The notes: generated by a model from the sequence alone, not told the origin. Counted from the first letter of the stretch, positions 1,918-61,796 are shown. The stretch: 64,000 nt of DNA from Candidatus Latescibacterota bacterium (GCA_965248265.1 CBDFJF010000001.1:2144001-2208000); one strand, 5' to 3'. Program-made: numbers and translations.

Positions 1918-1995
1918 GTGGGCGGATGCAGTATTGTGCCTTATTTTTCAAGGTTGCTCTGGAGATTTACCCAAGACCGGAATCGGACTCGGAAT

Positions 1996-28230: not shown

Positions 28231-28260
28231 CTTTCCTCCGAAGGTTCTGGATCCATCTCC

Positions 28261-28510: not shown

Positions 28511-28575
28511 TTGTGTATTACTGCTGCTCCCCAATAAGGACACTGGAACGCCGGCCGTCAAGTGCCTCGGGTAAA

Positions 28576-32810: not shown

Positions 32811-32861
32811 GTGCACGACCTCTTGTCGGTGGAGCTCACTAAAAGGAGACGGGCGGTAGCT

Positions 32862-34835
32862 CTACGATGATCGCTGGACCCGCTGGTACCAATCGACGAC
32901 GAGTCTCACCTGATTCTCGGTGTACCCGCGGTCCATCATGCGCTGTACAAAGTCCTCGTGTTTCTGCTGCTCTTCGGCAGAGCTCTTCTTCGTGAACGAA
33001 ATAACCGGCAGCAAATCCTCCGTGCTGGCGAACATCTTCTTCTCGATGACTTCACGCAGCTTCTCGTACCCAGTCCACTCCGGGTTGTCGCCGTTGTGTT
33101 CGGCGCGCCAGCGCAGGACGAAATTGACGATCTCGTTCCTGAAGTCCTTCGGATTGGCGATGCCTGCCGGCTTCTCGATTTTTTCCAATTCCTGGTTCAA
33201 CGCCGCGCGGTCGAACATCTCACCCGTATCCTGGTCGCGATAATCCTCATCGCGGGTCCAGAAATCGGCGTACTGCACGTAGCGGTCGAAGATGTTCTGA
33301 CCATAGCCCGAATAGGACTCGACGAAGGCCGTCTGTATCTCCTTGCTGATAAATTCCTTGTAGCGTTCGGCCAGGTACTCATTGATGAAGCCGAGGAATT
33401 CTTCTTCGCGCTCGTGCTGCAGGTGCAGGATCTCCTGGCGCAACACGTACATCAGATGCACTGGGTTTATGGCCACCTCGTTGGTGCTGTAGTTGAAGGT
33501 CTTCGACAGCACCTTGAAGGCGAAACGCGTCGACAGGCCATCCATGCCCTCGTCGACCCCCGCGTCATCCCGGTATTCCTGTATCGCCTTGGCCTTGGGA
33601 TCCACGTCCTTGAGGCTCTCGCCGTCGTACGCCCGCATCTTCGAGTGCAGGTTTGATTTCTCGCCTGGATCACGCAGTCGTGACAGCACGGAGAACTGCG
33701 CCATCATTCGCAGGGTCTGCGGCGCGCAAGGCGCCTCAGAGAGAGAGCTCTCCCGAATCAGCTTGCTATAGATCTCTTCCTCTTCATTCACGCGCAGGCA
33801 ATAGGGCACCTTGACGATGTTCACCCGGTCGATGAACGCCTCGTTGCGCTTGTTGGTACGGAAGTCCTGCCACTCCGACTCATTGGAGTGAGCCAGGATC
33901 AAGCCATTGAACGGAATCGCGCCCAGGCCTTCGGTACCCTTGTAGTTGCTTTCCTGCGTCGCCGTCAGCAGCGGATTCAGCGTCTTGATTGGCGCCTTGA
34001 ACATTTCAACAAACTCCAGAATTCCCTGATTTCCGCGCGCCAGACCACCAGAATAGCTGTAGGCATCCGGGTCATCTTGGGAATATTCTTCCAACTTCCG
34101 GATATCGACCTTACCAACCAGGGAAGAAATGTCCTGGTTGTTTTCATCACCGGGCTCGGTCTTTGAAATGGCGATTTGATTCAGAATCGAGGGGTAGAGT
34201 TTGACCACCTTGAACTGGGTGATGTCACCGCCGTACTCCTTCAAACGCTTCGCTGCCCAGGGAGACATGACCCGGGGAATGAAGCGGGACGGAATATCGT
34301 ACTTGTCCTCGAGTGCCTTGCGCTGGAACTGGTCCGCGAACAAGCCGAGCGGAGACTCGTTGATGGGGGAGTCCAGAATGGCGTAGAAAGGCTCCTGCTC
34401 CATCAACTCCTTTATGCGCTCTGCCAGAGAGGATTTGCCACCTCCCACCGGTCCGAGCAGGTACAGCACCTGCTTGAGTTCCTCGAGGCCCTGGGCCCCG
34501 TGACGCAGGAAGGAAACGATGTGATCGATCGTGTCCTCCATGCCGTAGAACTCGGCGAACGACGGATAGGTACGGATCACCCTGTTCGAGAAGATGCGGC
34601 TGAGGCGCTCGTCACCACTGGTGTCCAGGAGCACAGGGTCGCCGATGGCCTTGAGTAGCCTCTCGTGCGAAGAGGCGTACATGGTCGCATCGGCTTTGCA
34701 ATGCCCCAGGTACTCCAGCAGGTCCATCGACTCCTGCTGATGCTGGTCGAATAAGTCCTTGTACCAGTCGAGTTGATCAGATCGGTCACGAGAATGGTCT
34801 TGACCATTCTCCCTGGCCGTGGTGACGGTGGACAT
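32862..34835 (-). CDS. prkA: PrkA/YeaG AAA+ serine protein kinase
   Basis: LLGPVGGGKSSL, TEPGDENNQDISSLVGK, EFVEMFKAPIK, AHSNESEW. Confidence 0.95.
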   Translation of the reverse strand: MSTVTTARENGQDHSRDRSDQLDWYKDLFDQHQQESMDLLEYLGHCKADATMYASSHERLLKAIGDPVLLDTSGDERLSRIFSNRVIRTYPSFAEFYGMEDTIDHIVSFLRHGAQGLEELKQVLYLLGPVGGGKSSLAERIKELMEQEPFYAILDSPINESPLGLFADQFQRKALEDKYDIPSRFIPRVMSPWAAKRLKEYGGDITQFKVVKLYPSILNQIAISKTEPGDENNQDISSLVGKVDIRKLEEYSQDDPDAYSYSGGLARGNQGILEFVEMFKAPIKTLNPLLTATQESNYKGTEGLGAIPFNGLILAHSNESEWQDFRTNKRNEAFIDRVNIVKVPYCLRVNEEEEIYSKLIRESSLSEAPCAPQTLRMMAQFSVLSRLRDPGEKSNLHSKMRAYDGESLKDVDPKAKAIQEYRDDAGVDEGMDGLSTRFAFKVLSKTFNYSTNEVAINPVHLMYVLRQEILHLQHEREEEFLGFINEYLAERYKEFISKEIQTAFVESYSGYGQNIFDRYVQYADFWTRDEDYRDQDTGEMFDRAALNQELEKIEKPAGIANPKDFRNEIVNFVLRWRAEHNGDNPEWTGYEKLREVIEKKMFASTEDLLPVISFTKKSSAEEQQKHEDFVQRMMDRGYTENQVRLVVDWYQRVQRSS

Positions 34836-34899
34836 GACTGAACCTCCTGCTCTGAGCGCGATCAACTGCTTCAATGCAAGCTTCGTTTGCCAAGAACCT

Positions 34900-34915
34900 T
34901 GCAAGATCGGTGCCG
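34900..34915 (-). promoter_or_regulatory. Sigma-54 (-24/-12) promoter of prkA-yeaH-spoVR
   Basis: Minus strand CGGCACCGATCTTGCA, exact GG-N10-GC spacing, about 65 bp upstream of the ATG. Confidence 0.7.
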
Positions 34916-42694: not shown

Positions 42695-44593
42695 TTACCG
42701 CAACACCCTCACATCGCCGTTGCGCTGGGTGGTGCCGTCGCTGTCGAACCGATTCAGCAAAGCCAGGGCATAGCGTCGATTGCTGCCGATGAGATCACGG
42801 AAGCCGGATACGGTGATCTCGGAATGGGCCTGCAGATGTTGCCGCAGCCGTTCGCGCACGTCGTCGATCGTCGTCGTGTGAAGGACCAGGGTGCCCTCCA
42901 GGAAGGTCACCTGCCCCAATCCCTCCAGTGCTCTCAAAATGACTTCGACGCTTGTGGCATCGGCTCCGGCTTGCTGCGCCAGCTCCTTTGTATCGGGAAC
43001 CTGATCCAAGGTCGCCTTTCTCAAGGCAGTCTCTATCTGCTGCTTGAGTTGTTCTTCAGCCCCCGAGAACTGGATGCGATGATCGGCCGCGCGTACCAGG
43101 GATCCCTCGATGGCAATGCGGCCGTCCACCATCAGAGACTCCAGGACTCGTTGAAACAGGGATGGAGGCACGTAGCGACCCAGCTGACGGCGCAGATCCT
43201 CGCGGTTGAGCCCCTTGGCCAGCGGGGTCTGTTCGTGGAAGGCAGCCAGCATCTCCTCGATCCCGGTTGCGATCTCGTTCCAGCGCTGCGCGTGCACCAG
43301 ACTGTCTTCTTGATCGACGATCAGGCGCAGGGCGCGGCCGTCGCTGACCAGCTGTCCGGCCAGCTCGTGAACTTGCTCACGCGTCAGTCCCATGTCGCTG
43401 CCCAGTTTCAGCAGACTGGCAAAGCCGCTGCTGGTCCCTGCCAACTTTGCTTCCACGACCTCGGCTCCGTCCCCCGACTCGATCGCCTTGAGGCGCTCGA
43501 CGAGGCCGCGTTCCGTCCGTCGATGCTTGATCGGATGTGCTTCGAGGATCAACCCGCCGCCGATCGTCAACGGCGGGGAGTAACGCCTGATCACGAAACG
43601 GTCACCCCATGCGGCCGCGACCGGAGACTCTAATCGCAACTGTACCAATCCGTCCTCTCCAGGCTGCAGGCGATCCTGCTCCAGCAGAACCACCCGGGCC
43701 ATGACCTCACACGTGCCCAGGTGCAAACGCACTCGCGTCCGGTGCTCGAGTTCCTTGGGACAGCTGGAAACCAGGCGCAGACGCGCGTCCAGCATGGAAC
43801 TGGGGGCCAGCGATCCGGGCTCGGCCAGCACGTCTCCACGCTGAATCGGCAAACGCTCCTGTCCGACGACGTTGACGGCGGCCCGATCGCCGGCGCTGAC
43901 GGCATCCACTTCCTCTCCGTGGCGCTGCAGGCTGCGTGTGCGGACCTCCTTGCCTGCCGGCAGTACCTCCAGCTCGTTCCCCTTCGACAGGTTTCCCGAC
44001 AACACCGTGCCCGTGCACACCAGTCCGAAGCCCTTGGCAGAGAACGCGCGGTCGACGCTGAGCCTGAAAGGCCCCTCGGATCGCTTTTCCTGGGTCTGCG
44101 CGATGGTCTGCTCCAGCTGCTGCTTGAGGTCGTCCATTCCCACCATCGAGATCGCCGAAACCCGAACGATTGGAGCCTCCTCCAGAAAGGTCCCCGATAC
44201 CAGCTCGCGGATGTCTTCCTCCACCAGGTCCAACCAGTCATCATCTGCCAGGTCGACCTTGTTGAGCGCGATGACGCCGCGCTCAACACCCAAAAGCTCG
44301 AGGACATCAAGATGCTCCCGCGATTGCGGCATGACGCTGTCGTCCGCGGCGATGACGAGGAGGGCAACGTCGATCGTACTGACGCCGGCCACCATGGTCT
44401 TGACGAAGCGCTCGTGTCCGGGGACATCGATGATGGTGGCGTGTTCGCCATAAAAGGCGAAGCCCAACTCGATCGTTATTCCCCGAGCCTTCTCTTCTGG
44501 CGTTCGGTCGGTATCGGTACCGGTCAATCCCTTGACCAGCAAGGTCTTGCCGTGATCGATGTGGCCGGCCGTGCCTATGATGGTATGCGCCAT
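42695..44593 (-). CDS. selB: Selenocysteine-specific elongation factor SelB
   Basis: [40 protein letters not shown]; winged-helix end [16 protein letters not shown]. Confidence 0.95.
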
Positions 44594-44705
44594 ATGACGG
44601 AATCTAATCGGCTGCCGTCTCGGCAACAAAAGTGCTGCAGCTTTGTCGTCCCCATGGCATCCCCTATATTCGCGACCGCATTCACTGAAAAATAGAGGAC
44701 GAGTC

Positions 44706-45329
44706 TTGGCGGAAGTACTACACATCGATCCCGAGCATATCAGGGGTCGCTCGATCGCCCGTGCGGCGGAAATCCTCAGGGAGGGCCGGGTTGTCATTTA
44801 CCCGACGGACACGATCTACGGCATGGGATGTGACATCACCGTCAAAGCGGGACTCGAGCGGATCAGAAGGATGAAGGGGACGGACGCGAAGAAGCCGATG
44901 TCATTCGTGTGCAGCGACCTCAACGACATCAGCAGGTACGCCAAGGTGTCGAATTTTGCCTACCGCATCCTGAAGCGGTGTCTGCCAGGCGCCTACACTT
45001 TCGTGCTACCGGCGACGAAGGAGACCCCTCGAATGGTCCAGAGCAAGCAGAAGACGGTCGGCATTCGCATACCGGATCATCCCGTCCCGTTGGCTCTCGT
45101 GTCCGAGCTTGGCAACCCTATCGTCAGCACCAGCGCCAACCGCACAACAGAAGAGGTGATAACGGACCCCATCGACCTGGAACGCCAGTTCGGTTCACAG
45201 GTCGGAGTGATTCTCGAATGCGGCCTGCTCCCGGTGCAGCCATCAACCGTCATCTCCCTGGTCGGAGATGAGGTAACCATCCTGCGTGAAGGTCAGGGGG
45301 ATGTCGAGCTGTTTCGCGAGCCGGTGTAA
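44706..45329 (+). CDS. Sua5/YciO/YrdC threonylcarbamoyl-AMP synthase family
   Basis: YPTDTIYGMGC, LPGAYTF, VGIRIP, STSAN; TTG 44706 after GAGGA. Confidence 0.9.
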   Translation: MAEVLHIDPEHIRGRSIARAAEILREGRVVIYPTDTIYGMGCDITVKAGLERIRRMKGTDAKKPMSFVCSDLNDISRYAKVSNFAYRILKRCLPGAYTFVLPATKETPRMVQSKQKTVGIRIPDHPVPLALVSELGNPIVSTSANRTTEEVITDPIDLERQFGSQVGVILECGLLPVQPSTVISLVGDEVTILREGQGDVELFREPV

Positions 45330-50828: not shown

Positions 50829-52022
50829 CTACCCACGGGTACTGGCGATGGCCCATCGTCCCAGGGCCGGCAAGCGACCGAGCGCCGTCAGCCCAAGGGT
50901 TCCGGCTATGTCGCTCAGCAGTAGAGCCTGTAGCTGATTCCCAAGTCGTATACGCAGACCGAATTCACGCCGCCATTGCCGTCTGTAGGAGTCCAGCATC
51001 CGGGCGCCAGAGATAGCCCCGTCCAGGTAGCGGTCGGCGAGTGGCGCCGCCAGTTGTGCGGCGCGCAACGCCATCGAAATCCCGTCCCCGCACAGGGGTG
51101 CTATGGCGCCGGCGCTGTCACCGACGCACAATCGCCCGGTGTGCGGTGCAGGGCCGAATTGCAGGTTGGCCACGGCCAGGGCCTGCGACCAATCAGGCTG
51201 CAGCTGCTCCAGCCTGGAGGCGAGACTTGCATTGGCCGCCATCACCTGGTCGGCTAGCCGTTGCGGATCCTTGCCAACCCGGCGCAAGGCTGAGGATTTC
51301 ACCATGGCGCACACGTTCACTCGCTCACCTTCCACGGCAGCCAGGCCGAGATAACCGCCGTCGAAACCGTGTAACTCGACGGTGCTGCCCAGCTGTTCCG
51401 CGCCTTGAGTATGCAGTTTCAACCCCAGCATGCCATCGTCAGTCCCCGTCCCCCGGGACCACCACCTGGAGGCCTTCTCTCGCACGTGTTCACCCTCAGG
51501 AGGATGGCGCAGCAGAGCGCTCTGGCGGCCGCAGGCGTATATGACCAGGCGACATGCCAGCCGTTCACCCGACGCAAGATGGACAGCAGTAGATGCGGGT
51601 ACCGAATCGGTAGAGACTCTCTGGTGCAGGCCGTCGTCGTCGACCCCGGCGACACGGACCCCCTCGCGTACATCGACACCCGCACTCACGCACTGCTTCA
51701 GCAGCTGATAGTCCAACGCCGCCCGAGTGCACCCCACGGCATTCTGCGGCAGGCGCTCCTGCCACACCGCACCGCGTCGGCTGGAGACCAGAACCTGGTC
51801 GATATCGGGGCTGGTTGTCGCCAACCATTCACCCAGACCGAGATCCGCCAGGGCTGCGACGCCCTCGGAGGAAATGAATTCGCCGCAAAGTTTGTCGCGG
51901 GGAAACCTGGCCCGCTCCAGCAGTGTTACCCGCCTGCCTGCCCGCATCAGTTGGATTGCCATCGCAGAGCCAGCCGGACCGGCACCGATGACGACGACAT
52001 CAATGCGTTCGATCCCTTCCAC
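50829..52022 (-). CDS. FAD/NAD(P)-dependent oxidoreductase (geranylgeranyl reductase/FixC-like)
   Basis: DVVVIGAGPAG, FPRDKLCGEFIS, VGDSAGAIAPLCGDGISMAL. Confidence 0.9.
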   Translation of the reverse strand: MEGIERIDVVVIGAGPAGSAMAIQLMRAGRRVTLLERARFPRDKLCGEFISSEGVAALADLGLGEWLATTSPDIDQVLVSSRRGAVWQERLPQNAVGCTRAALDYQLLKQCVSAGVDVREGVRVAGVDDDGLHQRVSTDSVPASTAVHLASGERLACRLVIYACGRQSALLRHPPEGEHVREKASRWWSRGTGTDDGMLGLKLHTQGAEQLGSTVELHGFDGGYLGLAAVEGERVNVCAMVKSSALRRVGKDPQRLADQVMAANASLASRLEQLQPDWSQALAVANLQFGPAPHTGRLCVGDSAGAIAPLCGDGISMALRAAQLAAPLADRYLDGAISGARMLDSYRRQWRREFGLRIRLGNQLQALLLSDIAGTLGLTALGRLPALGRWAIASTRG

Positions 52023-52028
52023 CTTCGT

Positions 52029-52781
52029 TTACGCAGTCTCCGGTGGCAGGCACAGAGCCCAACGAAACCCCCAGCGCCAGCTCAACGACGATGGGCTGGC
52101 GCCTGCGGCACGCGAGAGTTCCTCAAGTTCGTGGCGGCGAAACCCGCGCAGAACGCTCAGCGGCCCGTCATGGCGGACAAACTTGCTGGCCGAGAACAGA
52201 GCCGATCCCAGACGGACGGACCAGTAAGCCAGCGGATGACGATGCAGGTCGTTGACGATTACGCCTACTCTGGCCAGCCCACGGAAGGTTCGCAGAATCA
52301 TGGCCGCTTCTTGGTCATCAAAGTGATGCAGAAACAGAGAGCTGTGAACGATGTCGAAGCTGGCCGGCCGAAACGGCACTCGGAAGACATCTCCGGCCAC
52401 GACGGCCGCTGCGACAACGGCCGGCGTTCCGGGGGGCAAATCCGTGTCGGCGACTCGCCTCAACAGGACCCGAGCACGGGCACAGGTGAAGGTGTTGATG
52501 TCCATGGATACTACCTGAAGAGACCGACCTGCCCGTCTCGACCAACGCTCCATCTCGACAGCGGTATCGGCTCCCCCGGCTCCGACATCCAGCACCGTCA
52601 ACTCCCGGCTCTTTGGTTCCGCGCGCAGCAGCTGCTCGATGCTGAGAATGCTGGCCCTGTGCCCCCCGAGGTGGCGGTTGATGATCTCGAGCTCTCGCAG
52701 AGCGTCATGGAGGACATCCCCGGCGATGTCCGGCTCATCCATGTACTCATGCCCGCGAGCGCGGGCGCCATAGCGGCTCAT
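52029..52781 (-). CDS. Class I SAM-dependent methyltransferase
   Basis: EYMD, INRHLGG, VLDVGAGGAD, SSLFLHHF, NDLHRH, DGPLSVLRGF. Confidence 0.9.
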   Translation of the reverse strand: MSRYGARARGHEYMDEPDIAGDVLHDALRELEIINRHLGGHRASILSIEQLLRAEPKSRELTVLDVGAGGADTAVEMERWSRRAGRSLQVVSMDINTFTCARARVLLRRVADTDLPPGTPAVVAAAVVAGDVFRVPFRPASFDIVHSSLFLHHFDDQEAAMILRTFRGLARVGVIVNDLHRHPLAYWSVRLGSALFSASKFVRHDGPLSVLRGFRRHELEELSRAAGASPSSLSWRWGFRWALCLPPETA

Positions 52782-52782
52782 G

Positions 52783-53880
52783 TCAGCGCGTGAAGCGCAT
52801 GCCCTCGATGCTGAGTCCCGGTCCGAAGCTCAGCGCCGCGCCAGTGCCGCCCTGCTCCATAGCACGCAGCGTACGCTCCAGCACGAACAGAACCGTCGGC
52901 GACGACATGTTCCCGAAGTCACGCAGTACACTTCTTGAACCATCTACCATTGCTGCCGGCAATCGCAGCGCTTCCTGAGCCGCATCCAGAATCGCCGGCC
53001 CACCCGGGTGGATGGCCCAGTGGGGATTCTCCTCCCGCTCTGGCGCCAATAGCTGCTGGGCGAAAGCGGGCAAACTCTTGGCCAGCACCCTCGGCGTGCC
53101 AGAGTCCAGTCCCATGCTGAAGGCGGCGTTGTCGATGCGCCAGGTGAGAAAGTCAGCGCTGTCTTCGAGCACACACGATTCGAAGCCTCGAATGCGTGCA
53201 TGACTCCCGTCGATACAATCCGGATTGGAGCTCAGGATCGCGGCCGCGGCACCATCCGCGAACAGGCAGTTGGCCACCAGATCCTCATCCATGTCCGAGT
53301 TGCGAAAATGCAGGGAACACAACTCAGCACATACCAGCAGTACTCTTGCGGCCGGCTCGCTGCGGCAGAAGGCGTCGGCGACCTGCAGGCCGTGCAGTGC
53401 CGCCTGGCATCCCATGAAGCCGATTTGCAGTCGTCGCAGATCGGTGCGCAAACCGAGCGCCCGTGCCACCTGCTGATCCGGTCCCGGGGCAACAAAACCG
53501 GTACAGGTGGCGAAGACCAGGTGCGTGATCTGTGCGGCGGCCGTTGCCGTTCGCTCCAACGCGGACTCGCAAGCCCGCACGGCCAGCGGTACCACTTCAC
53601 GCTCGTAGCGCTGCATGCGTTCGGCCAGAGTCATGTGTGCCGCCGTTATAGCCGATCCGTCCGCGAACTCTGAACAACAACTGTAGCGGGATTCGATTCC
53701 CGAGCGTCTGTAGAGGTAGTCGATGCGGCGTTCGAGCAGGCGCTTTTGCTGTGGCGATCGCCGTTCGTCACCAGCACCTTCAAGATGAACTCGCTTCATG
53801 AAACGGGCGGCCTCGTCCTGAGCTATGCGGTATCGCGGCACTGCAGTTGCGATTCCCAGCAACAGGGTCTCCGGCTTCAC
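52783..53880 (-). CDS. Type III polyketide synthase (chalcone synthase-like)
   Basis: Cys-His-Asn triad: GFMGC, AIHPGG, FGNMSS; also ELCSLH, LFADGAAA, FGPGL. Confidence 0.95.
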   Translation of the reverse strand: MKPETLLLGIATAVPRYRIAQDEAARFMKRVHLEGAGDERRSPQQKRLLERRIDYLYRRSGIESRYSCCSEFADGSAITAAHMTLAERMQRYEREVVPLAVRACESALERTATAAAQITHLVFATCTGFVAPGPDQQVARALGLRTDLRRLQIGFMGCQAALHGLQVADAFCRSEPAARVLLVCAELCSLHFRNSDMDEDLVANCLFADGAAAAILSSNPDCIDGSHARIRGFESCVLEDSADFLTWRIDNAAFSMGLDSGTPRVLAKSLPAFAQQLLAPEREENPHWAIHPGGPAILDAAQEALRLPAAMVDGSRSVLRDFGNMSSPTVLFVLERTLRAMEQGGTGAALSFGPGLSIEGMRFTR

Positions 53881-55265
53881 TGCTCGACCCCGATCCTTGT
53901 CTGTTTGCGTCGATCGAGCTCGGCTCCAATAGCAGGCAACATCCGGCGCAACTGACGTCGCACCACCACGGCTGCGATGAAAGACGGAACGAAAGCAGGT
54001 GGTTCGATGGCGGCGGCGTAGTCAACACGGGTCCCGCCGCGATCTGAGCTGAAATCCCAGGTACCGGAGAATCGGTCCACCGCCCCCTCGACCATGTGGA
54101 AGTGCAGTCGTTGCGGCAGCTGCTCCAGGAACTCCAGGGTCACGGCGAAACGAATCGGCACGACGAAGCGGCTGTTTACGCCTTGGCGCACCCTCGCAAC
54201 GCTGTCGCTGCGCGCCAGCACCACACTGCTCTCCACATTGGGCATGAAAGCGCTCAGACTTTCGTAGTCCGTCATCAACGCCCAGACCTCTCCGGGCGAG
54301 CAATCAAGCCACAGCGACGCCTGCACCGACACCACTCCGTCCTCCTGCGTCACCTTGAGCTCCGGTTCGGTGTGGGGTTGGTCCTGACTCGCCCCGGCGT
54401 ACTGGGCCAGGATAAGCAGCCAGAACACGGCGGCCATCAACGCACTCAGGCGAAACGACCAGTTGCCGTTTTCGTACACAGTGCGCTTGCCGAACCCGCG
54501 CTGCCATGATCTGAGGAGAACCAGGAAAGCGACCAGGAAAGCTGCCATGCCCGTTCCCCAGACCACTTCCACCCGTCCCGTCGCAATCGACAGCGCCAGA
54601 GCGAGGAGGCCGCAGGCAGTGAAGATGAAAGCGAGGCGGAAAACCGTGGCCGTGCCGAAACGCACCGCGAAGGTGATGTCGCCGCGCGCTCGATCCTCGT
54701 CTTGCTGGTACACCTGGGTCAGCGGATAAAGCGCCGTGATCACGGAGACACTGATCAGCCCCAGGGCAACCCGCTCCACCGAATTTAAATCGGGGCGCCA
54801 CCCCCCTCCTGCCATAACCCCCATGAAGAACGGCAGCAGCCCCTGCCCACAGGCCACGAGGACGAGCCCGAAAAGGGCGCGCGCCTTCCACCGCCAACGC
54901 GGGTGCGAGTACCCGACTCCCATCAGCAACATCACGAAGCCGAGCAGTCCCAGCTTCAGGTCCACGAAAAAACCCATGACCAGAACGGCAGCGCACTGCA
55001 AGCCGAGACCACCCCACAATTCCATTTGGCTTACCGCCGGCGGGTGTAGCAGGCCTCCCACCGGGCCCTCGTCGCGATCGTAGTAGCTGTTGTAGGCGGT
55101 AGCGCCGCCGTACAGCCCCACGTGCAACAGCAGGAATACCAGCACGAAGTGGCCATCCGGCTGTGCACCGGATGCCCAGTACCCGAGCAGGAAGACCGGG
55201 GCGAGCACCAACTGAAAGTGCAATCGCAGATGTTTGAGGAAGTCGAGCACGGAGCCGCGTCGCAA
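53877..55265 (-). CDS. UbiA-family prenyltransferase fused to a C-terminal SRPBCC/START (polyketide cyclase/Coq10-like) domain
   Basis: About 9 TM helices with YNSYYDRDEG, YSHP and TQVYQQDEDRARGD, then without a stop PGEVWALMTDYESLSAFMPNV..EGAVDRFSGTW..TRVDY. Confidence 0.88.
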   Translation of the reverse strand: MRRGSVLDFLKHLRLHFQLVLAPVFLLGYWASGAQPDGHFVLVFLLLHVGLYGGATAYNSYYDRDEGPVGGLLHPPAVSQMELWGGLGLQCAAVLVMGFFVDLKLGLLGFVMLLMGVGYSHPRWRWKARALFGLVLVACGQGLLPFFMGVMAGGGWRPDLNSVERVALGLISVSVITALYPLTQVYQQDEDRARGDITFAVRFGTATVFRLAFIFTACGLLALALSIATGRVEVVWGTGMAAFLVAFLVLLRSWQRGFGKRTVYENGNWSFRLSALMAAVFWLLILAQYAGASQDQPHTEPELKVTQEDGVVSVQASLWLDCSPGEVWALMTDYESLSAFMPNVESSVVLARSDSVARVRQGVNSRFVVPIRFAVTLEFLEQLPQRLHFHMVEGAVDRFSGTWDFSSDRGGTRVDYAAAIEPPAFVPSFIAAVVVRRQLRRMLPAIGAELDRRKQTRIGVEQ

Positions 55266-55267
55266 GG

Positions 55268-55870
55268 CTACGGGGTGTTGTATGCCGCGCCGAATTCGGC
55301 ACGGTGCAGGACATGGTACTCCGCGCCCGCCGGCGTCAGGTCGCTGTGCAACAGCGTCATTCCCGTTATTTGAAAGCGTTGCTCGGGTACCCTGGGTGGG
55401 CCGTTTTCGCCGAAACGGCCGCGTTGTCCACGACCGCGGACTCGCGCCAGCGTGATATGCGGCTTGAACACTTGCCGCTGGCGTTGCCAGCCCAACCGCC
55501 GGGCCAAACGCTCCACCTGTTTTTGCAGCGGCAGCAGCACCTGATCGTCTCCCTCTTCGCCCACACTGACCCAGATGGCCTGACCCCTGCGCAGTGTCGG
55601 AAATCCTCCGAGCTCTCCGGGGACCGCATCGAATGAAGCCTGCTGTTGGGCGATTCCGTCCATTCCGGAGATCAGCTCGGTCACGTTTCCCTGTTGGGTG
55701 TCACCCAGAAAACGCAGGGTCAAATGGAGGTTGTCTGCCTTCACCCATCGTAGAGCTCCTTCCGGCCAGAACGGCTGCAACTGTCTAGCCCAGTCCGACA
55801 GCTGCACTCGAACCGTTGTCGGCAGCTCGAGAGCGATGAATGTGCGGATCGTTTCCGGATCCTTATCGAT
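55268..55870 (-). CDS. thpR: RNA 2',3'-cyclic phosphodiesterase (2H family); start codon non-canonical or uncertain
   Basis: RTFIALEL, LHLTLRFLG, FKPHITLAR, SDLTPAGAEY. The frame is open to about 55900 but has no ATG/GTG/TTG before RTFIAL. Confidence 0.85.
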   Translation of the reverse strand: MDKDPETIRTFIALELPTTVRVQLSDWARQLQPFWPEGALRWVKADNLHLTLRFLGDTQQGNVTELISGMDGIAQQQASFDAVPGELGGFPTLRRGQAIWVSVGEEGDDQVLLPLQKQVERLARRLGWQRQRQVFKPHITLARVRGRGQRGRFGENGPPRVPEQRFQITGMTLLHSDLTPAGAEYHVLHRAEFGAAYNTP

Positions 55871-56054
55871 AATAGTACCTCGTGCAACGATATTCTTGCG
55901 TCAGCCTATATCATTGTGGACGCGTTGGTTCAATAAGTAGGACGGACTCAGGATTAGGGTCAATCGCGTTAGCTCCATTCTGCTTGCTCCGGTCACACCC
56001 CCCAACTACATTGAAAGATTCTCCCAGCCGTTAATCCCGAATAGATACCTATCT

Positions 56055-59000
56055 ATGGACCCAGGCCACATCTGCGTCAGAGGCGCCCGAGTTCATAACC
56101 TCAAGGACGTCAGTCTCGAACTACCCAAGAACCAGCTGATCTGCTTCACCGGCGTCAGCGGGTCGGGCAAGTCTTCGATGGCGTTTGACACCCTCTATGC
56201 GGAGGGGCAGCGCCGGTACGTGGCGTCGCTGTCAGCCTACGCCCGTCAGTTCCTCGGCCAGATGGAAAAGCCGGATGTCGACCAGATCGAGGGCCTGGCA
56301 CCGACCATCTCCATCTCCCAGAAATCGGGTGGCCACAACCCGCGCTCCACCGTCGGCACGATCACGGAGGTCTACGACTATCTGCGGGTGTTGTTTGCCC
56401 GCTGCGGTACCCCTCACTGCGTGGAGTGTGACAGTGAGATTGGTGCCCAGACCAGGGACCAGATCGTCAGCCGCATCGCCGCCTTGCCGGCCAAGAGTCG
56501 CATCCACGTGATGGCCCCGGTCGTCCAGGAACGCAAGGGCGAATATCATGAACTCTTCGATGACCTGCTCAAGGACGGCTACCTGCGCGTGCGCGTCGAC
56601 GGACAGCAATTCAGTCTGGAGCAACCTCCCGACCTCGACCGCTACAGCCGTCATACGATAGAAGTCGTCATCGACCGCTTGGTCATCAAGCCATCCATCG
56701 GTCCCCGCCTTGAGGAGGCCGTCGATGGAGCCCTGCGCATGGGCGACGGTTCACTGATCGTCCAGGTGGATGAGTCGGCGCAAGACTGGCTGCTAAGCGC
56801 CAACTTCGATTGTCCCTCCTGCGGTATTTCCTACCAGGAACCGACACCGCAGATGTTCTCGTTCAACAATCCGCAGGGAATGTGTCCGGATTGCGGTGGC
56901 CTCGGCAGCAAGGTGGTGATGAGTGAACGCTTGATCGTTCCGGATGAAAGCAAATCCATCATGGCCGGCGCCGTGGAGCCCCTCGGTAACGTCACCAGCA
57001 ATCGGTGGCGTCTCCATCTCTACGAAGGCATTGCCGAGCACCTTGGATTCTCCCTCGACACCCCGTGGAAGAAGCTGTCCCGCGAGCACCGAGACCGTTT
57101 TCTGCATGGAATGGGCGCCGAGAAGATCGAGTTCACCTACACCAACCAGAACGGCTATTCCTGGAGTCACAACGACCGCTACGACGGGGCGTTGCAGTAC
57201 CTGGAGGAGCGTTTTCACTCCTCCAACGCGAGGGCGCGTCGCGAGCTTGCCGGCTACGCGCGTTCCGAAATTTGTCCCACCTGCACTGGCGGACGACTGA
57301 AGAAGCAGGCTCTGGCTGTCACCATCGATGGAGAGCCACTGCCACGGTTGACGGGACTGTCGATCGAGCGCTGCCGGCACTTTTTCGACCAGCTGGAGCT
57401 TGATGGCAACAAGGCCCTGATCGCCGAGGACGCCCTCAAGGAGATCCGCGGACGCCTTGCGCTGCTCGTCGACATCGGCCTCAGTTACCTGACCCTGGAC
57501 CGGGGCGCCCACACCCTCTCGGGTGGCGAGTCGCAACGGATCCGCCTGGCCAGCCAGATCGGCTCGGGTCTGGTCGGCGTGCTCTACGTACTGGACGAGC
57601 CTTCTATCGGATTACACAATCGAGATAATCAGAAGCTGCTCGGCACCTTGCGGCGGCTGCGCGACGTCGGCAACACCGTCGTCGTCGTCGAGCACGATGA
57701 AGACACCATGCGCCAGGCCGATCTCCTCGTCGATTTCGGGCCAGGGGCCGGGGATCGCGGCGGCCATCTGGTCACCAGCGGGACTCCGGAGGAGGTCACC
57801 CAATGCCGCGAGTCGCAAACCGCCAGCTACCTGACGGGCGAGTCGCGCATCGAGATCCCAAGCCAGCGCCGCACCCTGCAACCCGATCGCTTCCTCACCG
57901 TGGTCGGGGCTCGGCACAATAACCTCAAGGACCTCACCGTACGCCTGCCCCTGTCCGTTTTCACCTGTGTGACCGGAGTGTCTGGATCGGGAAAGAGTTC
58001 ACTCGTCAACGACATCCTCTTCAAAGCCCTCGATCGCGATCTCCACAACGCCTTGACCGAACCGGGCGACCACGACGATATCCAGAACGTGGAGCACCTC
58101 GACAAGGTAATCCGCATCGACCAGAAGCCGATCGGGCGCACACCCCGTTCCAACCCGGCGACCTACACCGATGCCCTGACACCGATTCGGCAGTTGTTCG
58201 CGCAGCTGCCCGATGCTCGCCTCCGGGGATACAAGCAAGGTCGCTTCAGCTTCAATGTCGCCGGGGGACGCTGCGAAGCCTGCGACGGCAATGGTGCCAA
58301 TCTGGTGCAAATGGAGTTCCTCGCGGATGTCTGGGTTACCTGCGAAATCTGTGAAGGCCGGCGCTTCAACCGCGAGACCCTGACCATCAAGTTCAGGGAT
58401 CACTCGATCGCCGACATCCTCAATCTTGAGGTCGAAGAGGCTACGACACTGTTCGAGAATGTCCCCCACGTGAAGCGCGTGCTGCAGACTCTGTGCGACG
58501 TCGGACTCGGCTACATCAAGCTCGGACAACCAGCCCCCACCCTCTCCGGAGGCGAAGCGCAACGAGTGAAGCTGGCCAAGGAGCTATGCCGTGCCAGCAC
58601 CGGCCGCACCCTCTACCTGCTGGACGAACCGACAACTGGTCTACACTTCTCCGACATCGAGAAACTGCTACGCATCTTGCACACCTTCGTCGACCAGGGG
58701 AATACCGTCGTCGTTATCGAGCATAACATGGAGGTGATCAAGACCGCCGATCACCTCATCGATATGGGACCCGAAGGAGGCGAGGAGGGAGGCCTGGTGC
58801 TGGCCTCGGGCACACCCGAAGAGATCGCCGCCGTCCCCGGGTCGCACACCGGCCAGGCTCTGGTCTCAGCACTCGCCCCCGCGACATCCCGCAAGGCCGC
58901 CGCCAGGAAAAAACGCACCGGGCACACCAACGAGAAACCAAAAGCAGGTGGCAACGGATCCAATGGGAGCAATGGCTGGATCCGTGAAATCGAGGTCGTG

Positions 59001-61796
59001 GGAGCTCGCATGCACAACCTGCGTGACGTCGACGTCCGCATTCCACGGGACCAGATGACGGTCGTTTCCGGGGTCAGCGGCTCGGGCAAATCATCCCTCG
59101 CTTTTGATACGATTTATGCCGAGGGCCAGCGGCGTTATGTCGAATCCCTGTCGGCCTATGCGCGTCAGTTCCTGGCCCAGATGCAGAAACCGAAGGTCGA
59201 ACGCATCACCGGTCTATCGCCGGCCGTGGCCATCGAGCAGAAGAGCCCCAGTAAGAATCCGCGATCCACTGTCGGTACCATCACCGAGGTCAGCGATTAC
59301 ATCCGCGCCCTGTACGCGACCATCGGCGTCCAGCATTGTCCTCGCTGCGCCGTGCCGGTGGGAGCCCAGACGGTCCAGCACATGGTGGATCGTATTCTGC
59401 ACGAACCGGAGCGCCGCGTCATGGTGCTGGCCCCACTGGAACCGGTGCGCAACGAGGGCTACGAGGCCCTGTTGGCGCGTGCGCGCCGCGACGGCTTCGG
59501 CCGCGTCCGCATCGACGGCGAACTGCACGAGTTGAGCGAAGAGGACGTACAACTGGAGCGCCGGCATCGCCATCGGGTCGAAGTCGTCGTCGACCGCATC
59601 ATCGTCCGCCGGCGCGAACGGGCTCGTATTGCCGAGGCCGTGGAGCGTGCCCTGGAGCTGTCTGGTGGCGAGATAGTCATTGCCTCGATGGATGATGATT
59701 CGCAAACCTCACGCGAGGCTTCACAAGTGGAACGCTTCAGCCGGCGCTTTTCCTGTCCTTCTTGCGGTACCGGATTCGATGCCCTGGTCCCCCAGAGTTT
59801 CTCCTTCAATCACCGCGAGGGGATGTGTGAGATCTGCGAGGGACTCGGAGTCGGCGAAGGGGTGGACCGCGAGCTGTTGCTGCCCAACCGCCGCGTCTCC
59901 GTCCGTGACGGCGCGATTTCGGTTTGGGGTCCGATCGAGTCCGGTCGTTTCGGCGACTACCTGGAGGCCTGCGGCAGCGCCTTGGGATTCGATCTGGATA
60001 CCCCCATTGCCGAGCTGTCCACCGAAGGACAGCAGGCACTCCTCTACGGGGCTCCGGATCACTCCATCGAGATCGGCGGCGGCCTGCACCTGCGCTTCGC
60101 CGGGGTTTTTCCGACCGTTGACGAGTGCGCCCGTCACCACGTGAACCTCAAGAGTATGATGCAGGATGTGGCGTGCTCGGCGTGCCAGGGCAGTCGCCTG
60201 AAACCGGAGAGCCGCGCCGTCCACCTGCGCGAGCACACGATCGTCCAGTTGTTGTCGCAGCCGATCAGCGAGTGCCAGGCGTTTTTCGACCGCCTCGAGC
60301 TCGACGCCAAGGAGCAGGAAACCTCAGGCGAATTGCTCGGTGAGATCCGCAGCCGCCTGCATTTCCTCAACCGCGTTGGCCTCGGTTACATCTCACTGGA
60401 TCGACGCGCCGCCACACTTTCAGGTGGAGAGGCCCAACGCATCCGCCTCGCTGGCCAAATCGGCTCGGGGCTTACCGGCGTCCTTTACCTGTTGGATGAG
60501 CCCACCATCGGGCTTCATCCGCGGGACAACCGGCGACTCCTCGACGCGCTCGAGGAGCTCAAACAGCTCGGTAACACCGTGGTCATGGTGGAACACGACA
60601 GGGAAACGCTGGAAGCTGCCGACCATCTCATAGACCTGGGCCCCGGCGCAGGCACGGAGGGCGGGCACGTCGTCGCCAGCGGTCCGCCCGCCAAGGTGGC
60701 GAAGGCTCGCACGCGCACGGGGCAGTCGCTTACCGTCGACTACCTGCGGGGCAAGCTGAGCATTCCTTTGCCCAAGTCGCGCCGGCGACTGACCCGCGAC
60801 CATGAGATCCGCGTCATCGGCGCACGCCAGAACAACCTCAAGAATATCGATGTCGCTTTCCCTCTCGGGTTGATGATATGCGTCACCGGCGTCTCGGGGT
60901 CGGGCAAGAGCTCTCTGGTCGAGGAGGTTCTTCACAAGGGGCTGGCGTCAGCGTTGCAGCGCTCAAAGGGAGGCACCGGCGGGGGCGAGTATGATGAGAT
61001 CCGGGGTTTGGACCTGGTCGACAAAGTCATAAACATCGATCAAGCTCCGATCGGTCACTCGCCGCGCAGCACCCCGGCCACCGTCATGGGTGTCTTCGAT
61101 CAGGTCCGACAGCTCTTCGCCCGTCTGCCGGAAGCGTTGGTGCGTGGTTTCAAACCGGGTCGCTTCAGCTTCAATCGGGCTGGCGGACGTTGTGAGTCGT
61201 GTGAAGGTCTGGGATCGCGATGCATCGAGATGCACTTTCTGCCGGATGTCTGGGTGCGATGCGAAGCCTGCATGGGCCAGCGTTACGCCAACGAAATTCT
61301 CCAGGTCCGCTTCAAAGGCCACTCCATTGCCGCCGTCCTGGAGATGACGGTGAGCTCAAACCTGAAACTGTTCGCCAACGTCAACGGCGTTCGTGAACGC
61401 CTGCAGGTGATGGAGGATGTCGGTCTCGGCTACATGTCACTGGGTCAGTCTTCGACCACGCTCTCGGGGGGTGAAGCGCAACGACTGAAGCTGGCGGCGG
61501 AGCTGGCGCGGCCGGACACCGGCAACACCTTCTACATCATGGACGAGCCTACGACGGGGTTGCATTTCGCCGACATCCAGAAACTATTGCTCGTCGTCGA
61601 GCGTCTCGTCCAGGGTGGCAACACCGTCGTCATCGTCGAGCACAACATCGATGTCATCAAAACAGCCGACCATGTCATCGACATGGGTCCCGAAGGCGGC
61701 GATGCCGGCGGCCGCATCGTCACCAGCGGCACGCCGGAAAAGGTCGCGCGCAGCAAGCGCTCGCACACCGGTAAGATCCTGAGTGAAATCCTGTGA
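56055..61796 (+). CDS. uvrA: Excinuclease ABC subunit A, double-length tandem form
   Basis: Four Walker A motifs (GVSGSGKSS), four LSGGE and DEP motifs, UvrA zinc fingers twice, joined by a linker at about 58860-58980. Confidence 0.95.
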   Translation: MDPGHICVRGARVHNLKDVSLELPKNQLICFTGVSGSGKSSMAFDTLYAEGQRRYVASLSAYARQFLGQMEKPDVDQIEGLAPTISISQKSGGHNPRSTVGTITEVYDYLRVLFARCGTPHCVECDSEIGAQTRDQIVSRIAALPAKSRIHVMAPVVQERKGEYHELFDDLLKDGYLRVRVDGQQFSLEQPPDLDRYSRHTIEVVIDRLVIKPSIGPRLEEAVDGALRMGDGSLIVQVDESAQDWLLSANFDCPSCGISYQEPTPQMFSFNNPQGMCPDCGGLGSKVVMSERLIVPDESKSIMAGAVEPLGNVTSNRWRLHLYEGIAEHLGFSLDTPWKKLSREHRDRFLHGMGAEKIEFTYTNQNGYSWSHNDRYDGALQYLEERFHSSNARARRELAGYARSEICPTCTGGRLKKQALAVTIDGEPLPRLTGLSIERCRHFFDQLELDGNKALIAEDALKEIRGRLALLVDIGLSYLTLDRGAHTLSGGESQRIRLASQIGSGLVGVLYVLDEPSIGLHNRDNQKLLGTLRRLRDVGNTVVVVEHDEDTMRQADLLVDFGPGAGDRGGHLVTSGTPEEVTQCRESQTASYLTGESRIEIPSQRRTLQPDRFLTVVGARHNNLKDLTVRLPLSVFTCVTGVSGSGKSSLVNDILFKALDRDLHNALTEPGDHDDIQNVEHLDKVIRIDQKPIGRTPRSNPATYTDALTPIRQLFAQLPDARLRGYKQGRFSFNVAGGRCEACDGNGANLVQMEFLADVWVTCEICEGRRFNRETLTIKFRDHSIADILNLEVEEATTLFENVPHVKRVLQTLCDVGLGYIKLGQPAPTLSGGEAQRVKLAKELCRASTGRTLYLLDEPTTGLHFSDIEKLLRILHTFVDQGNTVVVIEHNMEVIKTADHLIDMGPEGGEEGGLVLASGTPEEIAAVPGSHTGQALVSALAPATSRKAAARKKRTGHTNEKPKAGGNGSNGSNGWIREIEVVGARMHNLRDVDVRIPRDQMTVVSGVSGSGKSSLAFDTIYAEGQRRYVESLSAYARQFLAQMQKPKVERITGLSPAVAIEQKSPSKNPRSTVGTITEVSDYIRALYATIGVQHCPRCAVPVGAQTVQHMVDRILHEPERRVMVLAPLEPVRNEGYEALLARARRDGFGRVRIDGELHELSEEDVQLERRHRHRVEVVVDRIIVRRRERARIAEAVERALELSGGEIVIASMDDDSQTSREASQVERFSRRFSCPSCGTGFDALVPQSFSFNHREGMCEICEGLGVGEGVDRELLLPNRRVSVRDGAISVWGPIESGRFGDYLEACGSALGFDLDTPIAELSTEGQQALLYGAPDHSIEIGGGLHLRFAGVFPTVDECARHHVNLKSMMQDVACSACQGSRLKPESRAVHLREHTIVQLLSQPISECQAFFDRLELDAKEQETSGELLGEIRSRLHFLNRVGLGYISLDRRAATLSGGEAQRIRLAGQIGSGLTGVLYLLDEPTIGLHPRDNRRLLDALEELKQLGNTVVMVEHDRETLEAADHLIDLGPGAGTEGGHVVASGPPAKVAKARTRTGQSLTVDYLRGKLSIPLPKSRRRLTRDHEIRVIGARQNNLKNIDVAFPLGLMICVTGVSGSGKSSLVEEVLHKGLASALQRSKGGTGGGEYDEIRGLDLVDKVINIDQAPIGHSPRSTPATVMGVFDQVRQLFARLPEALVRGFKPGRFSFNRAGGRCESCEGLGSRCIEMHFLPDVWVRCEACMGQRYANEILQVRFKGHSIAAVLEMTVSSNLKLFANVNGVRERLQVMEDVGLGYMSLGQSSTTLSGGEAQRLKLAAELARPDTGNTFYIMDEPTTGLHFADIQKLLLVVERLVQGGNTVVIVEHNIDVIKTADHVIDMGPEGGDAGGRIVTSGTPEKVARSKRSHTGKILSEIL

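Follow-up and report, generated by a model that had tools for sequence, protein, structure and literature searches.

Four minus-strand genes are tightly packed at positions 50829–55265 of the window (the whole 64-kb stretch of DNA analyzed), as delineated by ORF calls and Pfam matches. In order of transcription, they encode a fusion of a UbiA-type prenyltransferase and a START domain (53877–55265, 462 aa; PF01040 and PF03364), a type III polyketide synthase (PKS; 52783–53880, 365 aa; Chal_sti_synt_N and Chal_sti_synt_C), a class I methyltransferase (MT; 52029–52781, 250 aa; Methyltransf_11/25), and an FAD flavoprotein (50829–52022, 397 aa; FAD_binding_3). Read from the DNA, the junctions are a GTGA start/stop overlap between UbiA and PKS, TGA-C-ATG with a 1-nt gap between PKS and MT, and TAA-ACGAAG-GTG with a 6-nt gap between MT and flavoprotein. 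The four enzyme classes, the intact PKS triad, and the tight coupling reported in the preliminary description are borne out by the Pfam matches, the residues, and these junctions. The start of the UbiA gene is ambiguous and could be the TTG at 55265 or a GTG five codons downstream, the latter being used by database relatives. The gene thpR, encoding an RNA 2',3'-cyclic phosphodiesterase (55268–55807, minus strand; TIGR02258, 101.2 bits against a cut-off of 65.7), ends 2 nt upstream of this TTG; it is therefore probably co-transcribed with the module, and the transcript may hold five genes. By tblastn, thpR was matched at none of the 80 loci of the best 80 of 238 UbiA relatives, and it lies outside the conserved module. 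Two long ORFs that overlap these genes, 51405–52793 on the opposite (plus) strand, which has no Pfam match, and 54304–55314 in another frame of the minus strand, are taken to be high-G+C artifacts. No promoter-like site was found, and terminator-like sites occur no more often than in shuffled sequence. Pfam searches of the 64-kb window revealed no prenyl diphosphate synthase, acyl-CoA ligase, or carrier protein gene beside the module.

The same 80 loci were used to survey conservation. A type III PKS gene lies within 3.5 kb of the UbiA gene in 41 of them; 13 loci are co-linear with the window, and in 10 the UbiA(-START)–PKS–MT–FAD order is complete. The co-linear loci come from metagenome-assembled genomes (MAGs) labeled Latescibacterota, Gemmatimonas, and Eisenbacteria. 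In the remaining 39 loci, a PKS was not seen, although 15 of these have 9 kb or more of sequence on each side; hence, UbiA–PKS adjacency is frequent but not obligatory. As a rough expectation, chance would place a PKS beside a random gene in well under 1% of cases, and the observed adjacency exceeds this. The preliminary description had named a lack of UbiA–PKS co-occurrence in relatives as grounds against its reading, an objection that falls away with these counts. Because the neighboring genes vary from locus to locus, the module is autonomous. Actinomycetota are not represented among the best 80 of 238 UbiA relatives.

The PKS matches both chalcone/stilbene synthase families (PF00195, 106.4 bits; PF02797, 69.4 bits; cut-off 27 for each) and carries an intact Cys158–His291–Asn324 triad, as expected for the type III PKS superfamily. 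It is 41% identical to CepA (P0188) and, in a quick tree, falls with CepA and the PKSs of six co-linear loci in a clade with an SH-aLRT value of 97. The closest solved structures are 7cb3 and Pks18 (1ted), at E about 1e-49. Resorcinol formation is associated with a Trp at the site of ArsB Trp281, which is Gly in ArsC and Leu in Pks18 (PMC7064976 and the available part of PMC9927152). The window PKS has the ArsB/CepA-type residue, since its Trp247 aligns with CepA Trp243 and Pks18 Leu266. Among the 41 UbiA-linked PKSs, 39 have this Trp and all have the triad. The Pks18 tunnel positions Thr144, Cys205, and Ala209 correspond to Thr, Cys, and Phe in the window PKS, and the last two are Cys and Phe in CepA by pairwise alignment. 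CepA is a palmitoyl-primed (C16) pyrone/resorcinol synthase (PMC7064976). Based on these features, the window PKS is predicted to be a long-chain alkylresorcinol synthase, and its clade membership with CepA suggests a long-chain fatty acyl starter.

The UbiA-family membrane prenyltransferase domain spans 54387–55265 on the minus strand (residues 1 to ~293 of the fusion). Its PF01040 match covers residues 21–255 (67.9 bits against a cut-off of 34.2), and hydropathy analysis gives nine hydrophobic segments, the first of which is only weakly hydrophobic. There are two Asp-rich motifs, N59-x3-D63-x-D65 and E190/D191...D196, in which N59, D63, D65, D191, and D196 are invariant across 38 sequences; the first, N-x3-D-x-D, differs from the textbook NDxxDxxxD. 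The Pfam score, the two motifs, and the nine segments together place the domain in the UbiA superfamily. The single sequence gave no match to solved structures at E values up to 1, whereas the family profile matched ApUbiA (4od4) at E 0.009. None of the named NCBIfam UbiA subfamilies (UbiA, MenA, DGGGP synthase, etc.) reached its cut-off, the sole match being PRK12884 with 26.4 bits against 269.

Fused C-terminally to the ninth membrane helix, beyond a short acidic linker (54354–54386, minus strand), is a START/SRPBCC (Polyketide_cyc) domain (53880–54353, minus strand). Its assignment is supported by PF03364 (fusion residues 323–443; 64.1 bits against 23.4) and PF10604 (41.7 bits against 27.4). 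The nearest solved relative is TTHA0849 (2d4r), at 2.5e-7 with the single sequence and 4.6e-9 with the profile, which also matches the lipid-binding protein 3qsz at 3e-4 and the COQ10 homolog of Caulobacter (1t17) at E 0.02. Strong START matches occur in only 5 of the 80 loci of the best 80 of 238 UbiA relatives, so the domain is an accessory part of the module. Four loci (L001, L002, L006, and L009) encode START separately, in a gene directly adjoining or overlapping the stop codon of UbiA; its product starts with a positively charged n-region, followed by a hydrophobic core and an Ala-x-Ala site. This signal-like reading takes the start codon nearest the UbiA stop; use of a later ATG in L001/L002 and L006 would delete it. 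A hydrophobic 10-mer lies within the first 45 residues of 91 of 131 stand-alone START relatives, compared with 6 of 131 in a control stretch, and P0005 and P0006 have a lipobox-like LVAGC directly after helix 9. In the UbiA domain of the window, 15 Lys and Arg residues lie in the predicted cytoplasmic loops and 3 in the outside loops. The topology given for AfUbiA in the available part of PMC4106721 is N-in and C-out, with cytoplasmic Asp motifs. Given this topology, the charge bias, the position after the ninth helix, the signal-like separate STARTs, the hydrophobic N termini, and the lipobox-like sites, START most likely lies outside the cytoplasm, on the predicted periplasmic face, a location backed by three lines of sequence evidence. 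The proposed extracytoplasmic location is new here and had no place in the preliminary description, and no description of a START–UbiA fusion was found in the literature searched.

The MT matches class I families alone (Methyltransf_11/25/31/23/12) and is kept in the co-linear loci at 36–48% identity. Its family profile retrieved generic SAM-binding folds from the PDB and nothing else, and the enzyme is a class I SAM-dependent MT of an uncharacterized family. Two candidate identities were rejected: the NF004851 (PRK06202) equivalog, at 155 bits against a cut-off of 243, and an SrsB-like membrane enzyme of the ICMT type, given the exclusively class I Pfam matches.

Our preferred reading, which we hold with moderate confidence, is that the module is a self-contained pathway to a two-tailed, prenylated phenolic lipid, with START on the periplasmic side. 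The PKS would condense a long fatty acyl thioester with three malonyl units, and an aldol ring closure would then yield a 5-alkylresorcinol, as suggested by its clade membership and Trp247. The MT and flavoprotein would tailor the ring; the hid, srs/pkq, and agq pathways make it likeliest, by analogy, that it is methylated and hydroxylated to yield a head group of the hydroquinone/quinone type. UbiA, as its conserved adjacency to the PKS suggests, would act at the cytoplasmic face of the inner membrane, where it would attach the isoprenoid moiety of a prenyl diphosphate to the ring itself or to one of its oxygens. START, which would be suspended in the periplasm by the ninth helix, may bind the hydrophobic product at the outer leaflet and either hold it or hand it to the envelope; we infer both ligand and destination. 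As the PKS clade uses long fatty acyl starters, the product would bear two tails, one alkyl and one prenyl. The prenylated, hydroquinone-type compound of the preliminary description is a fair guess; the additional alkyl tail would set the product apart from a ubiquinone-like prenylquinone. Overall, that interpretation is partly supported. Comparable chemistry in the MAG lineages carrying the module (Latescibacterota, Eisenbacteria, and Chloroflexota) was not described in the literature searched.

The closest characterized precedent is the agqABCD cluster (Awakawa et al. 2011, ChemBioChem 12:439), which is not known to contain a START domain. This cluster, from Actinoplanes missouriensis and hence a different phylum, encodes a type III PKS, a monooxygenase, an MT, and a UbiA-like prenyltransferase and yields alkyl-O-dihydrogeranyl-methoxyhydroquinones, according to the citing text available in PMC10896814 and PMC7692728. 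Likened by enzyme class, with the agq oxygenase being a flavoprotein, the module has the same clustered four-enzyme composition, and the agq product, like the one proposed here, is an alkylresorcinol-derived, methylated, and prenylated hydroquinone. The earlier remark that no characterized product is known was, in view of agqABCD, too strong. The PKS has a counterpart in cepAB of 'Entotheonella', where a PKS of the same clade and with the same Trp determinant is followed by a SAM-dependent MT, the two genes being either 1 bp apart or overlapping by 8 bp, compared with the 1-nt gap in the window; the cep cluster consists of these two genes alone, without prenyltransferase, flavoprotein, or START (PMC7064976). 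The hidABC genes of cyanobacteria, which direct hierridin synthesis, and a planctomycetal operon combine an alkylresorcinol synthase with a soluble MT and an FAD oxidoreductase, as does the window when the tailoring enzymes are likened by class, but their order is MT–oxidoreductase–PKS and they lack START (PMC8086630, PMC10896814). They also lack UbiA, save for one cyanobacterial cluster with a prenyltransferase (PMC8086630). The point that the PKS–MT–oxidoreductase trio recurs in other phyla was correct; the trio is widespread, as shown by hidABC and by 58 of the 96 type III PKS genes of planctomycetes (PMC10896814). In srsABC of Streptomyces griseus and pkqABC of Mycobacterium smegmatis, a PKS-derived alkylresorcinol is methylated and oxidized to an alkylquinone. 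These systems have no prenyltransferase and use an ICMT-type membrane MT rather than a class I enzyme, a contrast rightly drawn for SrsB in the preliminary description (available part of PMC13730376). An srs-like operon of Jiangella that comes with a divergent UbiA gene is on record, though uncharacterized (PMC13608877).

The flavoprotein had been assigned as a standard ring oxidizer; by sequence, it is not a classical ring hydroxylase. Its family, which has no curated model, is related to both phenolic halogenases and geranylgeranyl reductases and has the invariant residues P41, K44, C46, G47, and E48; the predicted role of the enzyme is ring hydroxylation or prenyl-chain reduction. If it were a reductase resembling MenJ or geranylgeranyl reductase, the isoprenoid would be partly saturated and the ring would not be hydroxylated by this enzyme. 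Such a role, which we regard as possible but doubtful, is suggested by the best NCBIfam match, the geranylgeranyl reductase family (2e-32; MenJ, 1e-24), and by the invariant Cys-Gly-Glu in FPRDKLCGEF, which resembles the motif of such reductases. All NCBIfam matches nevertheless fall below their curated cut-offs, and membership in TIGR02032 (113.1 bits against 158.8) or MenJ (87.1 against 700) was rejected; QhpG scored 97.4. Trp-hydroxylating enzymes (QhpG, GoxB, and LodB) match too, and the family profile favors the phenolic halogenase type (CndH, 1.3e-42; CmlS, 2e-42) far over the solved reductase 3oz2 (8e-30), with QhpG (7ctq) at 1.1e-20. The two loci with UbiA, FAD, and MT genes together but no PKS (L066 and L069) and the dihydrogeranyl group of the agq product (available parts of PMC10896814 and PMC7692728) would fit a reductase, whereas hid, srs, and pkq, which are likened here by operon role and all lack a prenyltransferase, have ring oxidation assigned to their flavoprotein (PMC8086630 and the available parts of PMC13730376 and PMC9927152). 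The nearest solved relatives, which also include ChlB4, PltA, and Bmp2, are halogenases acting on phenols and pyrroles, and the enzyme that chlorinates hierridin C is not known (PMC8086630), so that a flavin-dependent halogenase and a halogenated phenolic lipid like hierridin C come into consideration. This we regard as most improbable, because the WxWxIP motif of halogenases is absent from the family: GWFWYIP of CndH aligns with G-Y-c-G-l-s-e. The column opposite CndH Lys76, the catalytic lysine of the halogenase, is not conserved either.

START itself might act as a polyketide cyclase, converting the PKS product to resorcylic acid for use by the fused prenyltransferase, in the manner of olivetolic acid cyclase and its UbiA-type partner in cannabinoid synthesis. 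Its Pfam family is named 'polyketide cyclase/dehydrase', and the profile distantly matches type II PKS cyclases (3tl1, 3tvr, and 2kf2 at E about 0.03; 3tfz at 0.06), but the lipid-binding START proteins 2d4r and 3qsz match equally well or better. We consider this role very unlikely, given the predicted extracytoplasmic site, where neither the soluble PKS nor its CoA substrates would be at hand, and the absence of START from most loci that retain UbiA and PKS; moreover, type III PKSs with the Trp determinant close the ring unaided (PMC7064976). Less remote, though still unlikely, is a chorismate-independent respiratory prenylquinone with a PKS-derived head group and a prenyl membrane anchor, acting as an electron carrier like the polyketide quinones of mycobacteria and Streptomyces. 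Polyketide quinones from PKS–MT–oxidoreductase systems are alternative electron carriers, the pkq and MNU77 products being respiratory (available part of PMC9927152), and the CepA authors compared their products with mycobacterial redox cofactors (PMC7064976). Some UbiA relatives also have quinone-style neighbors: a UbiE/COQ5-like MT overlapping the UbiA start (L027 and L010), an ABC1/UbiB-like kinase just upstream of UbiA (L005), and two cytochrome c genes just upstream of UbiA–FAD–MT (L066). On the other hand, the C16 starter of the PKS clade would already supply an alkyl anchor, the patchy distribution and varying contexts are those of accessory pathways, and no respiratory gene adjoins the module within the 64-kb window. 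The predicted exported START suits envelope lipid handling as well as redox work, and the two readings overlap, as the phenolic lipid that we favor could itself be redox-active.

For the two-tailed phenolic lipid, we tentatively suggest that synthesis is coupled to extracytoplasmic delivery: a polyketide–isoprenoid hydroquinone lipid would be made at the inner membrane and collected by a dedicated, exported START, tethered in the window to the prenyltransferase, which would carry or present it in the periplasm. COQ10 and bacterial START proteins are likewise small hydrophobic-ligand binders for one isoprenoid or quinone lipid class; COQ10 acts on the matrix/cytoplasmic side, unlike the predicted location of START. 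Precedent for the transit of a special lipid across the periplasm is provided by the sterol carriers BstB and BstC of Methylococcus, which have folds other than START (available part of PMC10942540). If the suggestion is true, the lipid could serve as an outer-membrane lipid or as a redox shuttle for periplasmic or outer-membrane partners, and its delivery would represent a type of lipid transfer that is new for bacterial phenolic lipids. In fusions of the L047/P0399/P0437 type, helix 9 is followed by an additional hydrophobic stretch, which could flip START to the cytoplasm in that lineage.

The module comprises four genes on the minus strand, and their reading frames, Pfam matches and DNA junctions bear out as written the tight coupling claimed in the preliminary description. 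The leading gene (positions 53877–55265) encodes a fusion of a UbiA prenyltransferase domain (PF01040, residues 21–255, 67.9 bits against a cut-off of 34.2) with a START/SRPBCC domain (PF03364, residues 323–443, 64.1 bits against 23.4). It is followed by genes for a type III polyketide synthase (PKS; 52783–53880, both chalcone-synthase domains in Pfam), a class I methyltransferase (52029–52781, Pfam) and a flavoprotein (50829–52022, Pfam FAD_binding_3). The UbiA and PKS genes overlap by GTGA, whereas the next two junctions read TGA-C-ATG and TAA-ACGAAG-GTG. The catalytic triad of the PKS, described earlier as intact, is indeed kept in full (Cys158, His291, and Asn324).

Only 2 nt separate the end of the gene thpR (55268–55807, minus strand) from the TTG codon with which the UbiA gene starts, and the transcript of the module may accordingly begin further upstream. 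A scan for promoters and terminators gave no promoter-like site and no excess of terminator-like sites over shuffled sequence. As a member of the module thpR was rejected, since tblastn gave a match in none of the 80 related loci described below. Next to the module these loci share no other conserved gene, as their flanks vary; together with the failure of thpR to recur, this argues that the four genes act as an autonomous unit. Downstream lies a convergent FIST-domain gene, whose end is 17 nt from the flavoprotein stop codon. The remaining genes of the window are housekeeping and signalling genes, and no quinone or isoprenoid genes were found in the rest of the 64 kb. The start of thpR itself seems unusual: the frame above its GTG at 55807 (55808–55903, minus strand) reads by eye as a typical ThpR N-terminus (I-R-T-F-I-A-L-E-L-P...) and contains no ATG, GTG, or TTG before the stop codon at 55903–55901, so that a non-standard start codon, ATC or ATT, is likely.

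Related loci were collected in a genome scan that used an alignment of UbiA relatives as query and one genome per species. This gave 286 pattern matches, 238 of them encoding UbiA relatives, and the best 80 of these 238 were kept as loci (numbered from L001), in which neighbouring genes were counted by tblastn with the window proteins. The highest identity to the window UbiA protein in the scan was 49%. The proposed pathway depends on UbiA accompanying the PKS in relatives, and a type III PKS is present in 41 of these best 80 loci, each time within 3.5 kb of the UbiA gene. It is co-linear and directly downstream in 13 loci, and the whole order UbiA(-START)–PKS–methyltransferase–flavoprotein is found in 10 (L001, L002, L003, L004, L005, L007, L009, L015, L029, and L055), eight of which are labelled Latescibacterota, Gemmatimonas or Eisenbacteria, whereas L004 and L005 bear no label beyond “uncultured bacterium”. 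In Chloroflexota loci, the flavoprotein, (methyltransferase) and PKS genes run divergently from the UbiA gene, which is often preceded by a gene for a UbiE-like methyltransferase; in Polyangiales, the PKS belongs to a distant clade and a UbiE-like methyltransferase gene converges on the UbiA gene. A PKS is missing from 39 loci, of which 15 extend at least 9 kb to both sides and 24 are shorter on at least one side. A plasmid search (tblastn with the UbiA–START fusion) returned one SRPBCC match only, in Chroococcidiopsis, and no cluster.

Some individual loci deserve mention. L001 and L002 are almost identical, including the START reading frame and the flanking genes; one is labelled as a Gemmatimonas phototrophica MAG and the other as a Latescibacterota MAG, which suggests either very recent transfer or a mistake in binning or labelling. 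The methyltransferase frame of the co-linear locus L003 (11935–12630, plus strand) has an in-frame stop, reflecting a pseudogene or an assembly error, and was for that reason left out of alignment A4. In two Anaerolineae MAGs (L066, 8971–12851, and L069), UbiA, flavoprotein and methyltransferase genes stand together with no PKS within 10 kb, and in L066 this group is immediately preceded by two genes for cytochrome c, with a gap of about 28 nt.

The solved structures closest to the window PKS are 7cb3 and Pks18 of Mycobacterium tuberculosis (E about 1e-49), and a named protein among its database relatives is CepA of “Entotheonella” (P0188; 41% identity), a palmitoyl-primed pyrone/resorcinol synthase. 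A quick maximum-likelihood tree of 83 rows, with SH-aLRT as the sole support measure, combined the window PKS with every one of the 41 PKSs from the loci and with 41 of the 120 database matches listed (CepA and every third match longer than 330 residues). In this tree, the window PKS, six co-linear loci and CepA form a clade with an SH-aLRT value of 97. A Trp residue is regarded as the mark of resorcinol formers (ArsB Trp281 and CepA Trp243, as opposed to ArsC Gly284 and Pks18 Leu266; PMC7064976). Trp247 of the window PKS aligns with CepA Trp243 and, in Pks18, with a Leu. All 41 UbiA-linked PKSs have an intact triad and 39 have the Trp, the exceptions being L073 (Tyr) and L079 (Phe); the UbiA family is thus paired with resorcinol-type PKSs, drawn from three PKS clades. 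In Labilithrix luteola (L075, 8033–10354, minus strand), the longest reading frame containing the PKS has 773 residues and an N-terminal part that is weakly SRPBCC-like (PF03364, 23.7 bits), which could be an extra domain or an over-extended reading frame.

No named UbiA subfamily fits the prenyltransferase part of the fusion (best NCBIfam match 26 bits against a cut-off of 269), and a single-sequence search of the PDB gave no match to it. The alignment of relatives shows that the Asp-rich motifs are kept, and the family profile gives a weak alignment to ApUbiA (E = 0.009). UbiA and START are rarely fused: they share one protein in 7 of the 120 relatives listed, and UbiA fusions make up 5 of the best 150 START representatives. 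Some START relatives are long multi-START proteins, in which no Pfam domain of another kind was seen.

Three lines of sequence evidence predict that the START domain is located outside the cytoplasm. The UbiA part has nine hydrophobic segments, with 15 Lys and Arg residues in the predicted inside loops versus 3 outside, and AfUbiA is described with an inside N-terminus, an outside C-terminus and cytoplasmic Asp motifs (PMC4106721); helix 1 is weakly hydrophobic in the window protein, and fusions of the L047/P0399/P0437 type have an additional hydrophobic stretch behind helix 9. In L001/L002, L006, and L009, START has a gene of its own, which directly adjoins the UbiA stop codon or overlaps it (by ATGA in L009), and the Pfam domain of the encoded protein begins 45 to 110 residues in. 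When read from the start codon nearest the UbiA stop, these proteins open with a charged n-region followed by a hydrophobic core and an Ala-x-Ala site, a signal-like start that a later ATG in L001/L002 and L006 would drop. Stand-alone START proteins of at most 300 residues (131 among 147 new representatives) have a hydrophobic 10-mer within their first 45 residues in 91 cases, compared with 6 of 131 for the control residues 61–105. Two Eisenbacteria fusions carry a lipobox-like LVAGC after helix 9, where the window fusion has Ala-Gly-Ala-Ser; cleavage at either site is speculation. P0376, a relative of 224 residues whose START part is 81% identical, runs from about 35 N-terminal UbiA residues through a short unrelated stretch into START, as if the fusion had undergone a deletion or a frame shift. 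Small SRPBCC genes lacking an N-terminal extension occur in two Chloroflexota loci (L072, 14129–14605, and L077, 12651–13148, both minus strand), adjoining a halogenase-like FAD gene and lying 2 to 4 kb from the UbiA gene.

The START domain could also be read as a polyketide cyclase acting on the PKS product. We put this role low because the domain is predicted to lie outside the cytoplasm and is missing from most loci that keep UbiA and the PKS, strong START matches being confined to 5 of the 80 loci. The NCBIfam matches of the flavoprotein all fall below cut-off; the best is to the geranylgeranyl reductase family (113 bits, cut-off 158.8), with QhpG at 97 and MenJ at 87 bits. A prenyl reductase is a live alternative. 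At profile level, the top solved relatives are phenol and pyrrole halogenases (CndH, 1.3e-42), followed by reductase 3oz2 (8e-30) and QhpG (1.1e-20); a halogenase nevertheless seems improbable, as the WxWxIP motif is absent. By analogy with the published hid, srs/pkq, and agq pathways, we favour a ring hydroxylase. The class I family to which the methyltransferase belongs is uncharacterised (NF004851, 155 bits against a cut-off of 243), and the profile of this family matched only generic SAM-binding folds in the PDB, with no pointer to C- or O-methylation.

The agqABCD genes of Actinoplanes missouriensis reportedly direct the formation of alkyl-O-dihydrogeranyl-methoxyhydroquinones (attributed to Awakawa and colleagues, 2011). 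Two later papers describe the AgqA products as alkylresorcinols that are afterwards prenylated and hydroxylated (PMC10896814) and name agqA–agqD as a gene set (PMC7692728). In the loseolamycin region of Micromonospora, a UbiA-family prenyltransferase, a putative methyltransferase and an acyl-CoA dehydrogenase adjoin the type III PKS (PMC7587189, Table 1); a srs-like operon of Jiangella has a divergent UbiA gene (PMC13608877), and one cyanobacterial hid-like cluster includes a prenyltransferase (PMC8086630). In kind, then, the combination is already known. Ubi-297/EboC, a UbiA-like protein of a conserved operon, was discarded as a relative system, as it belongs to the unrelated ebo cluster. The route to a prenylated (hydro)quinone or meroterpenoid put forward in the preliminary description is thus supported in part: the UbiA–PKS linkage is conserved, but an agq-type combination was already known. 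Our literature search for a UbiA–START fusion, or an exported START partner for phenolic lipids, found none in print, and looking for type III PKSs together with UbiA brought up no papers beyond those named here.

Type III PKSs make phenolic lipids that stiffen membranes and protect resting cells and that, in actinomycetes, substitute for menaquinone under low oxygen. The product of the module is most likely a long-chain alkylresorcinol derivative that is prenylated, methylated and probably hydroxylated. The last steps of its synthesis would take place in the inner membrane, and the START domain would meet the finished lipid on the periplasmic side. An exported START protein that takes a specialised lipid from its finishing enzyme is a concrete, testable idea, and the interest of the module lies in this putative exported lipid-binding partner and in its spread in little-known phyla. 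With this module, the range of prenylated phenolic lipids, so far represented by one actinomycete example, would take in several phyla that are mostly uncultured. The module also yields a candidate family of alkylresorcinol prenyltransferases, whose PKS partner has the resorcinol-type Trp at 39 of the 41 loci.

Other features of the window were also recorded. Divergent from the thpR–PKS operon, a gene at 56055–61796 (plus strand) encodes a protein of 1913 residues with two full UvrA copies in tandem (NF001503, 2633 bits over two stretches), which also matches the long UvrA model PRK00635 (1809 positions) below its cut-off. A cobalamin riboswitch (RF00174, 95.3 bits; 28250–28519, minus strand) immediately precedes the gene for a TonB-dependent receptor (25882–28230, minus strand). 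The genes for PrkA kinase (32862–34904) and SpoVR (29954–31762), both on the minus strand, form a pair with an unassigned reading frame on the opposite strand between them (31911–32870, plus strand). SelB, encoded at 42695–44797, implies selenocysteine use, and a protein of 608 residues (1918–3744, plus strand) consists of ankyrin repeats nearly throughout.
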